IMG/VR virus record: IMGVR_UViG_2654587540_000009
Location: 1-3,799 of that record
Strand: one strand, 5' to 3'
Origin: a virus
Lineage: Duplodnaviria > Heunggongvirae > Uroviricota > Caudoviricetes
DNA: 3,799 nucleotides
Below the pieces are notes generated by a model, which saw only the letters and a program-made list of their open reading frames with translations, made no database searches and was not told the origin of the DNA. A program made the translations under genes and the position numbers. This document shows, in pieces, positions 1-3,799 of the stretch. Position 1 is the stretch's first letter. Each line of letters starts with the position of its first letter.

Positions 1-37
1 ATGCCATTTGCTCGTTATTTCTGCATTTTCATAAACG
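1..37. repeat. Left arm of an exact 37-bp inverted repeat (partner 3179..3215); includes the outer half of crossover site A
   Basis: Reverse complement of 3179..3215 (cgtttatgaaaatgcagaaataacgagcaaatggcat) equals 1..37 (atgccatttgctcgttatttctgcattttcataaacg), 37/37. May extend left of the window. Confidence 0.95.
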
Positions 38-576
38 TTGGTTTGGGAGAAGGTTCGGCATTACCCGTTGGCGTGCCTGTTCCGTGGCCTTCCGCCACTC
101 CGCCAACAGGCTGGCTGAAATGCAACGGTGCCGCTTTTTCTGCTGAAGAATACCCGCAACTGGCAAAGGCTTATCCGACAAATAAATTGCCTGATTTACG
201 TGGTGAGTTTATTCGTGGCTGGGATGACGGGCGTGGTGTGGATGCGGGACGTGCCTTGCTAAGTCTTCAGGATGACTCTTTTGAAGCGCACAGGCATGAG
301 TCCTTTTTTTACGCGGGTATTTCTCGCAATGAAATACCATTAAAAAATCTTCCAAGTTCAGACGAGATGCTGACTTTAAGTTCTACAACTAATGCCTTGT
401 CCCCGGACGGTATTGATGCCACTAATTCGTTAATTGGTAATGATGATTACAACTGTCTGATTGAAGGAAATAAAAATAACAAACGAACAGCGACGGGGTT
501 GAGTACCAGTATTGTCGGTGCAGCAGAGACACGCCCACGTAATATTTCATTTAATTACATTGTGAGGGCTGCATGA
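1..576 (+). CDS. Side-tail-fibre C-terminal receptor-binding cassette (Sv-like), possibly 5'-partial; joined to crossover site A
   Basis: Translation ...NVGLGEGSALPVGVPVPWPSATPPTGW...RNISFNYIVRAA matches the C-terminal region of lambdoid side-tail-fibre proteins as I recall them (...PWPS... and ...FNYIVR.A ending). The frame is open from nt 1, and the first 12 codons (MPFARYFCIFIN) lie in the 37-bp repeat arm and are not fibre-like. ATGA overlap with the downstream tfa at 573..576. Confidence 0.8.
   Translation: MPFARYFCIFINVGLGEGSALPVGVPVPWPSATPPTGWLKCNGAAFSAEEYPQLAKAYPTNKLPDLRGEFIRGWDDGRGVDAGRALLSLQDDSFEAHRHESFFYAGISRNEIPLKNLPSSDEMLTLSSTTNALSPDGIDATNSLIGNDDYNCLIEGNKNNKRTATGLSTSIVGAAETRPRNISFNYIVRAA
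26..51. other. Crossover site A (gix/pix/hix-like 26-bp recombination site), core dinucleotide 38..39
   Basis: ttttcataaacg|tt|ggtttgggagaa has two 12-bp half sites of the form TTnnnnnAAAC(C/G) and GGTTTnnnnnAA around a 2-bp core, as in Gin/Hin/Cin crossover sites (gix is TTCCTGTAAACC-GA-GGTTTTGGATAA as recalled). Encodes I-F-I-N-V-G-L-G-E in the fibre frame. Confidence 0.8.
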
Positions 577-1178
577 TGTATAACGCCATCTTGAATAGTA
601 AATTTATTGCCACAAAGGCAGGAGAGATTACCGTTTATAACTATGACAGTGAGACACGGGAGTATATTTCTGCATCAACTGAATATCTTGCTGTGGGTGT
701 CGGTATCCCTGCATATTCCTGTTTAGATGCTCCTGGCACACATAAGGCTGGTTATGCAATCTGCCGTTCGGCAGATTTAAACTCATGGGAATATGTGTCA
801 GACCATCGCGGTGAAATCATCTATAGCACCGAAACAGGAGAATCGAAAGAAATCACAGCTCCGGGTGATTATCCTGAAAATACAACCACTATCGCCCCGT
901 TAACGCCATACGATGAATGGGATGGTGAGAAATGGGTAACAGATACTGTGGCACAGCATAGCGCCGCAGTAGGCGCGGCAGAAGCACAGCGTCAGTCACT
1001 GATTGATACTGCAATGGCTTCCATTAGTCTGATTCAGCTGAAATTGCAGGCCGGACGGAATCTGACGCAGGCAGAAACCGCCCGACTTAACGCTGCGCTG
1101 GATTACATTGACGCGGTGACGGCAACAGATACCAGCACCGCGCCGGATGTCATCTGGCCTGAACTGCCGGAGGCGTAG
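573..1178 (+). CDS. tfa: Tail fibre assembly protein (Tfa / Mu U-like chaperone)
   Basis: 201 aa. C-terminus ...DYIDAVTATDTSTAPDVIWPELPEA resembles the conserved Tfa C-terminus (lambda Tfa ends ...VDTSTAPDIEWPAVP as recalled). GAGGG Shine-Dalgarno at 564..568; start overlaps the fibre stop (ATGA). Confidence 0.85.
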   Translation: MMYNAILNSKFIATKAGEITVYNYDSETREYISASTEYLAVGVGIPAYSCLDAPGTHKAGYAICRSADLNSWEYVSDHRGEIIYSTETGESKEITAPGDYPENTTTIAPLTPYDEWDGEKWVTDTVAQHSAAVGAAEAQRQSLIDTAMASISLIQLKLQAGRNLTQAETARLNAALDYIDAVTATDTSTAPDVIWPELPEA

Positions 1179-1593
1179 GCCATTCAATATCTGGCGCACC
1201 GGAAGTATCGACCAGTTCCAGTGCGTCCAGATAATCCAGCCACAAATTATATTGCGCCAGTTCCTCACCTTTCAGACGACCAATAGCGGCTTTACCGGGC
1301 CATTGCTTACTGTTCATGTATTCGTTGGCTTGGTTAATTAGTAGCTGTCTTTCTGATTCAGTAATTTCAATAAGCTCTTCATGCGTGGGTGGAGGAATAT
1401 CTGCCCACGCAGGCAGCCCATCATCTCCGGCAATACGGATTTTTCCTTGTAGCGGTTCAGCCATAAACTCACTGATAATATTTTGATTTACTTCCTTAGC
1501 GTCTGATAAATCCCATCCCTCTGATTTATATTTATCAATCATATCCACAGGGAAAAAAGCATTATGCCTTGCGCTATAAACATATTCGTTCAT
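1150..1593 (-). CDS. tfa: Tail fibre assembly protein, second type (Tfa'), cognate to the minus-strand fibre
   Basis: C-terminus ...LDYLDALELVDTSGAPDIEWPTPPAVQAR carries the same Tfa motif. I place the start at the ATG 1591..1593 (MNEYVYSARH...); the track's GTG at 1600..1602 sits inside the AGGGTG Shine-Dalgarno-like sequence. The 3' end overlaps the plus-strand tfa by 29 bp (1150..1178), convergently. Confidence 0.8.
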   Translation of the reverse strand: MNEYVYSARHNAFFPVDMIDKYKSEGWDLSDAKEVNQNIISEFMAEPLQGKIRIAGDDGLPAWADIPPPTHEELIEITESERQLLINQANEYMNSKQWPGKAAIGRLKGEELAQYNLWLDYLDALELVDTSGAPDIEWPTPPAVQAR

Positions 1594-1613
1594 ATAAATC
1601 ACCCTGAATAAAA

Positions 1614-2276
1614 TTACTCACCAACAGCCCACCAACTGTAATTCATCGATACCGTGTCGCTGGTTGATGACGTTCTGTAAGCAGAATTAAAGCCGGTTAA
1701 CGTTGGGCCTTCTGCAGTCATCACGAACCCTCGCCCAGCGCCTAAAGGCGCACCGCCATCACCAGAATGAGTAAGCATGGCGCAGTCCGCTTTTTTGGGG
1801 AAAGGGATGCTGAATGTAATTCTCATTGTTTGCGTCGATAATGTCGGCGTAACCGCACCACGACCATATTGCAGGATTTTCCCGTTGGGTAATTTCATCC
1901 ATCCATCACCACTGGCAAAAGAGGCCATGTCCGGTATCTGATTTTCCCCTGTCCCCACATCCCGTTTTGCCGCTTCTCCCAAACCAAGGTTTTCGAGAGC
2001 CGTTTTCACCGTGCCATCCGATTTGATATCACCAAACGGATTCTTGCGGCTTAACAGCAGAGCACGAAGCGCGGTAAGCAACTGGTCGTTTCGCCCCTTC
2101 TCCAGGCTGGCACCGGATGCCTCCACCACGCTGCAAAGCTCCTCCTGCAACATATCAAAGTAGTCATCATCCAGATCGGTGGCAGGTGTGCCGGTCTGGG
2201 GGTTACCACGGGTAAAACCGTTCTTACCCGCGCCGAACTTATCCTTCTGCGCGGTTTTCGTGTCTATACGATGCAT
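1614..2276 (-). CDS. Tail fibre protein, 220 aa, with its own start; N-terminal ~96 aa outside and C-terminal ~123 aa inside the A-B invertible segment
   Basis: ATG at 2274..2276 preceded by GGAG (minus strand, 6-nt spacer) and an in-frame stop immediately upstream. C-terminal part contains ...[19 protein letters not shown]..., resembling the G-W-x-K-L-P-x-G-x-I-x-Q-x-G motif of phage fibre receptor-binding domains. Codons 93..101 (ALENLGLGE) are encoded by crossover site B. Confidence 0.8.
1974..1999. other. Crossover site B (internal, inverted relative to A), core 1986..1987, inside the minus-strand fibre gene
   Basis: ttctcccaaacc|aa|ggttttcgagag. The first 14 nt are identical to the reverse complement of A positions 38..51 (core plus inner half); the outer half fits the consensus but differs from A. 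Encodes A-L-E-N-L-G-L-G-E on the minus strand, with the core in the same codon phase as in A. Confidence 0.75.
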
Positions 2277-2328
2277 GGATTACTCCGGATATTTAAAAAT
2301 TACGTAGGTATGCGACGGGCAGAGTTTG
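2277..2328 (-). promoter_or_regulatory. AT-rich intergenic region with ribosome-binding site (and possibly a promoter) for the minus-strand fibre gene
   Basis: GGAG Shine-Dalgarno complement at about 2283..2286. AT-rich stretch (atatttaaaaattacgtagg) between the GC-rich block and the fibre start. No convincing -35/-10 pair could be fixed by eye. Confidence 0.25.
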
Positions 2329-2646
2329 TTAAGCACACACTCGACAACGGTGTCGCCCCAGATAACCATCACGCAGCAGGAACGAACGCAACTCCGCGGT
2401 GATGGCAGCCCGTATTTCCGGTGTGTCCGGCGTCACACGGATATGAAAATCCACCGTATGTGCCACCGGCCTGAACACATACAAATCAGAGCCTGCCACC
2501 GGGGCCAGTGGCCCGATATGTTGTCTTGCCGCCGTTTCCGTTGATTCTTCCGGAATGGGATTAATCAGGTCACTGCTGGCAATCATCACACCGACAGTCC
2601 CCGTTCCCATCCAGTGTCGGTATGTCCATGCGCGGGTAGAAGTCAC
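2329..2646 (-). CDS. Hypothetical phage protein (105 aa), possibly a frameshifted continuation of the upstream gp10-like ORF or a tail-completion remnant
   Basis: ORF in a GC-rich block where the opposite strand translates to Arg/His/Pro-rich antisense-like peptides. Overlaps the upstream ORF by 77 nt in a different frame. No recognisable motif. Confidence 0.2.
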
Positions 2647-2938
2647 CAGAGATCATCCGGTTCCCCTTCCCGTTGCGCTGGTTAGGGGCAATGCGTGTCA
2701 TAAAACCGGCTCGCTTTTTACTGGCTCTCGGCACCATGTAACCAATCGAACGAGCCAGGCGTCCGGTCTGATAACCGGGGTTTTCACCCGGTGCCGACCG
2801 CGCACGGCGCATCACCAGCCGACGGGCATCACGCATATGACGCTGACCAATCGTGACAAACGCCCGCCGGACACGGGCGCGGTTAAAGCGCATCTCCGCG
2901 GGCTGCTGAAAATCAACGTGCAAAAAGGAAGTCGTCAT
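2570..2938 (-). CDS. HK97 gp10-like head-tail joining / tail-component protein (possibly truncated or pseudogenised)
   Basis: Segment ...RRARSAPGENPGYQTGRLARSIGY... resembles the A-P-x-x-T-G-x-L-R-x-S-I core I recall for the HK97 gp10-like family; the expected downstream Y-A-x-x-V-E-F-G-T part is missing in this frame. The 26-nt overlap with the upstream adaptor-like ORF is typical of phage morphogenesis operons. Confidence 0.3.
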   Translation of the reverse strand: MTTSFLHVDFQQPAEMRFNRARVRRAFVTIGQRHMRDARRLVMRRARSAPGENPGYQTGRLARSIGYMVPRASKKRAGFMTRIAPNQRNGKGNRMISGDFYPRMDIPTLDGNGDCRCDDCQQ

Positions 2939-3168
2939 TGTTGCCTCCGTGACTCTGCCTACATTCGCCCAGCTCCGTACACTCCAGCAGCAGAAAGCGC
3001 CGCGCCCCGTTCAGATCGCGCTGACGTTTCACCCGGTACACACTGTCACCGCAGACCACCTCATAATCAGCGGTGATCCCCCGGCGGTAACGAATGGTGA
3101 TGTAATGGGTGATGGCGTCCCCGGTCTGCGCGGTTTCCTGCCAGGTGGTGGCACTGGTCTGGATAACC
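2913..3168 (-). CDS. Phage head-tail adaptor (head-tail joining) protein-like ORF; 5' end runs into the N gap, so partial
   Basis: ...THYITIRYRRGITADYEVVCGDSVYRVKRQRDLNGARRFLLLECTEL matches the I-T-I-R-Y-R ... L-L-C-x-E C-terminal signature I recall for head-tail adaptor proteins of HK97-like siphophages. The track's ORF continues through the Ns into the repeat arm (MMPFARYFCIFIN), but reading frame across the gap is unverifiable. Confidence 0.35.
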
Positions 3169-3190
3169 NNNNNNNNNNCGTTTATGAAAA
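3165..3190. other. Crossover site C (invertase-proximal); only the outer half 3179..3190 is readable, core and inner half fall in the N run
   Basis: cgtttatgaaaa at 3179..3190 is the exact reverse complement of A's outer half (26..37). By analogy with Mu and P1 the invertase gene lies immediately beside one crossover site. Exact extent depends on the true gap length. Confidence 0.55.
3169..3178. other. Run of 10 N (assembly gap or masked bases) at the predicted core of crossover site C
   Basis: Ten consecutive n characters in the sequence; true length and content unknown. Confidence 0.99.
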
Positions 3191-3215
3191 TGCAGAAATA
3201 ACGAGCAAATGGCAT
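3179..3215. repeat. Right arm of the 37-bp inverted repeat; includes the outer half of crossover site C, 29 bp upstream of the pin start
   Basis: Exact reverse complement of 1..37. Homology on the inner side cannot be assessed because 3169..3178 are N. Confidence 0.95.
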
Positions 3216-3244
3216 CATTCCTGCTTTTGTCAGGGGGATCTACC

Positions 3245-3799
3245 ATGCTTATTGGCTATGTACGCGTATCAACAAATGACCAGAACACAGATCTACAACG
3301 TAATGCGCTGAACTGTGCAGGATGCGAGCTGATTTTTGAAGACAAGATAAGCGGCACAAAGTCCGAAAGGCCGGGACTGAAAAAACTGCTCAGGACATTA
3401 TCGGCAGGTGACACTCTGGTTGTCTGGAAGCTGGATCGGCTGGGGCGTAGTATGCGGCATCTTGTCGTGTTGGTGGAGGAGTTGCGCGAACGAGGCATCA
3501 ACTTTCGTAGTCTGACGGATTCAATTGATACCAGCACACCAATGGGGCGTTTTTTCTTTCATGTGATGGGGGCCTTGGCTGAAATGGAACGAGAACTGAT
3601 TGTTGAACGAACAAAAGCTGGACTGGAAGCTGCTCGCGCACAGGGACGAATTGGTGGACGTCGTCCCAAACTTACACCAGAACAATGGGAACAGGCCGGA
3701 CGATTAATTGCATCAGGAGTTCCTCGCCAGAAGGTGGCGATCATCTATGATGTTGGTATATCGACACTGTATAAGAAGTTTCCGGTCGGAGATAAATGA
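3245..3799 (+). CDS. pin: Serine DNA invertase, Pin/Gin/Cin/Hin family (184 aa)
   Basis: MLIGYVRVSTNDQNTDLQRNA... N-terminus with the catalytic Ser in the VRVST motif, ...VVWKLDRLGRS... resolvase-fold core and a C-terminal helix-turn-helix (...QKVAIIYDVGISTLYKKF...). Closely resembles e14 Pin as I remember it. GGGGGA Shine-Dalgarno at 3233..3238. The upstream in-frame ATG at 3209 would add a non-conserved 12-aa extension and lies inside the repeat arm, so 3245 is preferred. Confidence 0.95.
   Translation: MLIGYVRVSTNDQNTDLQRNALNCAGCELIFEDKISGTKSERPGLKKLLRTLSAGDTLVVWKLDRLGRSMRHLVVLVEELRERGINFRSLTDSIDTSTPMGRFFFHVMGALAEMERELIVERTKAGLEAARAQGRIGGRRPKLTPEQWEQAGRLIASGVPRQKVAIIYDVGISTLYKKFPVGDK

Follow-up and report, generated by a model that had tools for sequence, protein, structure and literature searches.

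The DNA dealt with here, called the window throughout, is a stretch of 3,799 nucleotides. Read from its left end, it displays a fibre tip fused to a short leader, two genes for tail-fibre assembly proteins, a short fibre gene, remnants of phage baseplate and head genes and, beyond a gap in the scaffold, a recombinase gene (Table 1). The two fibre tips belong to two cassettes. In each of them an assembly gene of its own directly follows the tip, both assembly proteins show the Caudo_TAP domain, and the cassettes converge.

Table 1. Position and nature of the features in the window
Feature	Position	Strand	Remarks
stfE-like ORF, 191 aa	1-576	+	13-aa non-fibre leader MPFARYFCIFINV, then tip 1 (GLGE...NYIVRAA, 178 aa)
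Crossover site A, pin-proximal	26-51		12 bp + core TT (38-39) + 12 bp; in codons 9-17 of the plus-strand ORF
P-type segment, invertible in silico, 1946 bp	40-1985		Two convergent cassettes, each a fibre tip with its assembly protein
TfaE-like tail-fibre assembly protein, 201 aa	573-1178	+	Tip 1 chaperone; Caudo_TAP, E 4e-31
Second tail-fibre assembly protein, 147 aa	1150-1593	-	Tip 2 chaperone; ATG at 1593; Caudo_TAP, E 1e-29
StfP-like fibre gene, present state, 220 aa	1614-2276	-	Constant part 1986-2276 (97 aa)
Tip 2, 123 aa	1614-1985	-	Gp53-like_C domain
Crossover site B, inverted relative to A	1974-1999		Core AA on the plus strand at 1986-1987; codons 93-101 of the fibre gene
Deletion scars	2277-2638	-	3'-terminal ~85 nt of ymfQ (2277-2364) running into an internal piece of the baseplate J gene (2361-2638)
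Head-side genes, SfV-like prophage	2570-3168	-	122-aa ORF and 3' part of a head closure/completion gene (PF05521), ended by the gap
Run of 10 N, scaffold gap	3169-3178		
Copy of the pin-proximal flank	3179-3215		Repeats window 1-37 exactly in reverse complement, left half of site A included
pinE-type serine invertase, 184 aa	3245-3799	+	Resolvase catalytic domain and HTH_7; Ser9 in YVRVST

Genes and crossover sites

The plus-strand ORF at the left end is homologous to the stfE pseudogene of Escherichia coli K-12. Its tip contains a phage tail collar domain (Pfam Collar, E 1.7e-15). The first-pass annotation had described this tip as attached to a leader that does not resemble a fibre. Such a leader is indeed found; it is 13 residues long and looks like that of the K-12 pseudogene. 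A long fibre constant region reading into position 1 from upstream had been named as the observation that would overturn the proposal. There is none; instead, pin lies upstream. In the related loci L001, L002, L004, L005 and L010, about 30 nt separate position 1 from pinE, which is read divergently from the opposite strand. The left flank of the window itself can be rebuilt from the inverted copy at 3179-3300. In this flank, position 1 is directly preceded by an ATG, and an in-frame TAG stands eight codons before that ATG.

The minus-strand fibre gene was said to possess its own start and Shine-Dalgarno sequence. Both are there, GGAG being placed 6 nt before the ATG at 2276. Its product is a homologue of StfP, and in intact relatives the gene follows ymfQ in the tail operon. 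These sequence features support the minus-strand gene as the fibre that is probably expressed. The leader-fused ORF, however, should not be assumed to be silent: by analogy, it may be made as well, since StfE2, its post-inversion equivalent in K-12, is reported to be produced (PMC12529663). The 147-aa assembly protein corresponds to an annotated gene of 444 nt in relatives.

Tip 2 has its closest kin in foreign company. The protein is 99% identical to a stretch of the Citrobacter phage Omnitron and 88% identical to a stretch in a P2-type phage of E. coli O157:H43, while the rest of these fibres is unrelated to that of the window. Judged from these matches, receptor-binding tips appear to be exchanged horizontally, as cassettes, between unrelated tail types.

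Site A reads TTTTCATAAACG TT GGTTTGGGAGAA. Site B reads TTCTCCCAAACC AA GGTTTTCGAGAG on the plus strand, and its reverse complement is CTCTCGAAAACC TT GGTTTGGGAGAA. Both are imperfect palindromes of 26 bp, built as 12 + 2 + 12, inverted relative to each other and equipped with the same central dinucleotide, which is the layout of an invertase system. They agree in 21 of 26 positions and have in common a perfect arm of 15 bp, TTGGTTTGGGAGAAG, at 38-52 and 1973-1987; a repeat search of the window returned the pair as inverted repeats at 33-52 and 1973-1992. Even with up to 3 mismatches allowed, the 15-mer has exactly 2 matches in the window, 0.09 being expected by chance. A third crossover site, as it would be typical of a multi-site shufflon of the p15B kind, was considered and rejected, since only these two sites are found even when mismatches are tolerated. 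The half-site at 3179-3190 is merely the duplicated flank of site A.

Both sites lie inside coding sequence and both encode GLGE, as had been read from the letters and is now borne out by the computed translation. In site B, ALENLGLGE corresponds to residues 93-101 of the 220-aa minus-strand ORF (1614-2276), with the CTT codon at 1986-1988. In site A, INVGLGE corresponds to codons 11-17 of the plus-strand ORF, with the GTT codon at 37-39. The core TT thus occupies codon positions 2 and 3 in either site (GTT in A, CTT in B), exactly as claimed. Only the extent of the feature has to be amended: the interval 1614-2276, to which it had been assigned, covers the fibre gene and site B, but site A lies outside, at 26-51.

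The computed inversion and its counterparts in other genomes

Flipping positions 40 to 1985 in silico yields a fibre of 275 aa (MHRID...NYIVRAA), followed by the 201-aa Tfa; the two ORFs are joined via an ATGA overlap. On the other side, a 136-aa ORF arises as the reciprocal product; it combines the leader with tip 2 and ends in SWWAVGE. The crossover is placed inside the fibre frame, and a constant N-terminal part becomes joined in frame to alternative C-terminal parts. The prediction of an in-frame A x B inversion had been made by hand, with the proviso that an exact computation might put the junction out of frame; the computation finds it in frame. The interpretation that tip and chaperone are swapped together, in frame, by A x B inversion is supported. 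Of the tip lengths given earlier, the 123 aa are right, while the other tip measures 178 aa and not 179, if the constant part is taken as 97 aa.

The rearranged forms occur in other genomes. By megablast, 3,604 of 5,426 complete E. coli genomes match the window. In annotated relatives the canonical order is pinE (leftward), tip, tfaE, tfa, fibre, ymfQ, baseplate J, GP46 and baseplate V; the order pinE, tip, tfa, tfa, fibre, ymfQ, J is seen in L001, L004, L005, L007 and L014. In L004 (E. coli WP4-S18-ESBL-08), a gene annotated as a 275-aa "phage tail protein" lies just downstream of ymfQ; its product matches the predicted fusion almost completely, and the window inverted in silico is collinear with this locus over 813-2364 at 97%. 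The other predicted product, the 136-aa ORF made of leader and tip 2, is annotated beside pinE in L014 (strain OkiPb01716).

A census with four junction queries of 500-525 nt, in which genomes with at least 80% coverage were counted among the 5,426 complete E. coli genomes, gave a similar answer at a larger scale. The constant part is joined to tip 2 in 72 genomes and to tip 1 in 514; the pin flank is joined to tip 2 in 278 and to tip 1 in 830. All four types of junction are present, which implies that each cassette occurs on either side.

A peculiar case is the sister strain E. coli 18AR0366 (L002, NZ_CM132283.1). Its flanks match the window at 100% identity. Its P segment (3810-5696), by contrast, shows 62% identity in one orientation and 72% in the other, and 94% of its bases match one orientation or the other, alternating over short stretches. 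The mosaic is probably a consensus or polishing artefact of a culture of mixed orientation, and its pattern suggests that the element flips in culture. The genes of this segment are annotated as frameshifted or partial in what is deposited as a "complete" genome.

An attempt to find both orientations within the O157:H7 clone was dropped, because the two O157 loci concerned, L005 and L006, are different prophages and can not be compared like for like. L006 (E. coli O157:H7 ECP19-798) contains, at 4152-6969, a second pinE-linked fibre switch, in which pin has the window's tip 2 as its neighbour. The fibre gene of this switch comes after remnants of phage replication genes and not after a baseplate module, i.e., in yet another, independently truncated context. 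In L009 (GCA_013062135.1) the module adjoins an integrase and a DarT/NADAR pair.

The recombinase gene and the scaffold gap

The product of pin is a small serine recombinase. It matches PF00239 (E 1.5e-51) and also PF02796, and it is 96.2% identical to PinE of K-12. The 5' part of the gene is present, and the DNA is 94.8% identical to K-12 pinE. In the systems of Hin, Gin and Cin, a recombinational enhancer that binds Fis is located in cis, within the 5' portion of the gene for the invertase.

In the window, pin sits beyond the 10-N gap, and its adjacency to site A is derived from the 37-nt overlap between the copied flank and the left end of the window and from the relatives. In L002 and in L010, a near-identical draft contig, the flank is present as a single copy and links site A to pin, and the head-closure gene runs on into a connector gene. 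Most likely, the piece with pin has been set across the 10-N join in the wrong orientation; its true place would be on the minus strand, left of position 1. From these comparisons we conclude that the join is, in all likelihood, a scaffolding error, by which the 3.17-kb contig appears flipped. Read pairs from cells that had the segment in the other orientation may plausibly have caused it.

One could, of course, take the order in the window at face value. The flank copy at 3179-3215 does come after 3168 across the gap, and serine invertases are able to use secondary sites; pin with its flank might then be a second, inverted copy to the right of the head-closure gene, or the product of a secondary rearrangement mediated by Pin. 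Yet the 37-nt flank exists twice, at 1-37 and at 3179-3215, and one site-specific exchange is unable to produce a second copy of it. The L002 sequence past 3168 (TTCGCCCATGTC) is unlike a crossover site, and in L002 and L010, as mentioned, the head-closure gene is uninterrupted and site A has pin as its neighbour. A head-closure fragment with pin adjacent to it, as in the window, occurs in 0 complete E. coli genomes, and the junction, with a gap of 0-30 nt, has no match among the contigs of representative genomes. That the order in the window is real is, therefore, highly improbable.

Kinship with the e14 switch and possible roles

To the right of the fibre gene the prophage is in ruins. Compared with L001, the stretch from the 3' end of ymfQ to the internal J fragment has lost 636 bp. 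These scars were recognized by blastn against L001, by the annotation of L002 and by Pfam Baseplate_J; the fragment that bears J appears at 2329-2646 in the ORF list and the Pfam scan. Beyond 2638 follow directly the head-side genes, which are 100% identical to L002. The genes for tail sheath, tube, tape measure and baseplate have been lost, while fibre module and pin are intact. In L010, for which the gene table and the final 174 bases were inspected, proA, proB and phoE are the neighbours of the remnant. The window almost certainly holds the invertible P segment of a heavily deleted e14/SfV-like prophage of E. coli. With tail and baseplate genes lost, this copy cannot serve the classical purpose of such a segment, the control of phage host range.

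The closest known system is the P segment of e14 in K-12. The order stfP-tfaP-tfaE-stfE-pinE is the same, and both 26-bp sites agree with those of e14 in every base, A with the pin-proximal one, B with the one inside stfP. The first 101 residues of the window's fibre, which take in its constant part, are 98% identical to StfP, and the 201-aa assembly protein is 87.6% identical to TfaE. Also the GLGE junction and the leader MPFA(R/C)YF of the parked tip are the same; the K-12 stfE leader, the counterpart of the window's plus-strand leader, reads MPFACYFFIFINVGLGE. The differences concern the cargo. Tip 2 and its chaperone make up another cassette, whose identity to the StfP tip and TfaP of K-12 is 23% and 43%, respectively, and the middle of tip 1 differs as well (54% identity). 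The segment measures 1.95 kb versus 1.8 kb in K-12. The deletion in the prophage is also a different one, the scars of ymfQ and J being fused to head genes and the remnant lying beside proA in L010.

More distant parallels are the G segment of Mu with Gin and the C segment of P1 with Cin. As is well established, a serine invertase is encoded beside the segment there too, a site lies inside the fibre gene, and a constant part is combined with alternative variable parts that have their own assembly proteins in convergent cassettes. In comparison to these phages, the constant part in the window is very short (97 aa, a small gene of its own) and the segment is smaller. In intact relatives the tail module is Mu-like, with Mu Gp45, GP46, baseplate J and Mu Gp48. 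The "short tail fiber protein" of the Shigella phages SfV, SfII, SfI and SfIV is 77-78% identical to the first ~160 residues of the window's fibre; the matches end near residue 160, and the tips differ. These serotype-converting phages combine an HK97-type head with a Mu-type tail, and the remnants in the window reveal the same mixture. The design of the Mu and P1 segments is also cited in the work on e14 (PMC12529663).

The e14 switch itself is well documented. The original description is credited to Plasterk and van de Putte (1985), who sequenced it, and to Mehta et al. (2004), who re-analysed it, as these papers are cited in PMC12529663 and PMC4272514. Goldberg et al. (2014) found both orientations to coexist in clonal K-12 cultures and noted a ycfK-stfE fusion (PMC4272514). 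Kirigo et al. (2025) sequenced and quantified the inversion of the 1797-bp P segment between the TTGGTTTGGGAGAAGG repeats in stfP and stfE, which are contained in the sites of the window; it generates chimeric stfP2 and stfE2, and both PinE and PinQ act on the segment (PMC12529663). Inversion amounts to about 30% in wild-type K-12 cultures (PMC12529663). The feature under study is, thus, a member of the e14 P-segment/PinE family, which is already published. New are only a different pair of cassettes and a more heavily deleted prophage.

The mechanism would be that of the family. An invertase of the PinE type, one of the small serine invertases comprising Hin, Gin, Cin and Pin, would pair the 26-bp sites A and B, cut both at the central TT/AA with a stagger of 2 nt, rotate and exchange the strands and religate them, whereby 1.95 kb are flipped. 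With the inner half-sites identical and in frame, the exchange would be silent at the GLGE junction, and the tip and chaperone downstream would be swapped. The fixed 97-aa N-terminal part would thus be joined alternately to tip 2 (123 aa, with the 147-aa chaperone, the state in the window) or to tip 1 (178 aa, with the 201-aa chaperone), and the tip not in use would be parked behind the 13-aa leader next to pin. That Pin is the catalyst and that switching takes place in this strain we infer from the family and from the published K-12 experiments. The sites, the frame, the identity to K-12 and the fusions in other genomes are observed, and there is very little doubt that a P-segment switch operated by PinE is the best explanation of the locus.

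A rival view holds that the module is a frozen relic, its sites and cassettes kept by descent, with no inversion in this strain and neither form of the fibre functional. The loss of tail, sheath and baseplate genes, with ymfQ and J reduced to scars fused to head genes, would fit, and a scan of the window, in itself uninformative, found promoter-like and terminator-like sites no commoner than in shuffled sequence. However, neither pin nor any of the five ORFs of the module is disrupted, both 26-bp sites are identical to the active ones of K-12, and the assembly of the sister strain 18AR0366 looks like a mix of both orientations. Moreover, the equally tail-less e14 of K-12 still inverts, in wild-type cultures at a level of roughly 30% (PMC12529663; PMC4272514). 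Such a relic is unlikely, and a P segment still capable of inversion is the preferred reading.

What a switch might be good for in a phage that can not build a tail is a different question. The module, i.e., the fibre gene, both tips, both chaperones and pin, is intact in three differently deleted remnants: the e14 of K-12 (L003), the window together with L002 and L010, and L009. This hints at selection for the module itself. In K-12, StfE2 joins the leader to a gp53-like tip; reportedly, this protein is produced and prevents phage T2 from adsorbing, a result that rests largely on over-expression and docking (PMC12529663). The inversion could, accordingly, be the one described above and yet have adopted a role in host defence, in that the 136-aa post-inversion product, MPFARYFCIFINVGLGE plus the gp53-like tip 2, blocks the adsorption of other phages. 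It has the same leader as StfE2 and a tip of the same kind, and the persistence of the intact module in at least three remnants would be understandable. On the other hand, tip 2 of the window is only 23% identical to the StfP tip of K-12, which implies that the specificity can not simply be transferred, and the analysis brought out neither a promoter nor an export signal for the leader ORF. Considering also the nature of the K-12 experiments, we regard this role as possible but doubtful.

Significance of the switch in prophage remnants

The interpretation is correct, and what it has rediscovered is a published system, the P segment of e14. A site-specific inversion switch can evidently be reconstructed from the raw sequence alone; as a discovery this has little weight, the e14 switch being long known. 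Of practical importance is that invertible switches provoke errors in assembly and scaffolding, as seen in the misplaced piece with pin and in the scrambled consensus of a "complete" genome.

For the biology of the family, the persistence of an intact switch in prophage remnants that are unable to build a tail fits a role that benefits the host, and Kirigo et al. (2025) propose such a role for StfE2 of K-12. Going one step further, the module may have been domesticated as a phase-variable anti-phage device, whose leader-fused or short fibres block receptors with a specificity set by the cassette pair of the strain. This idea is speculative and, at present, rather improbable. If true, it would extend the single K-12 report on StfE2 and T2 to a whole family of exchangeable cassettes.
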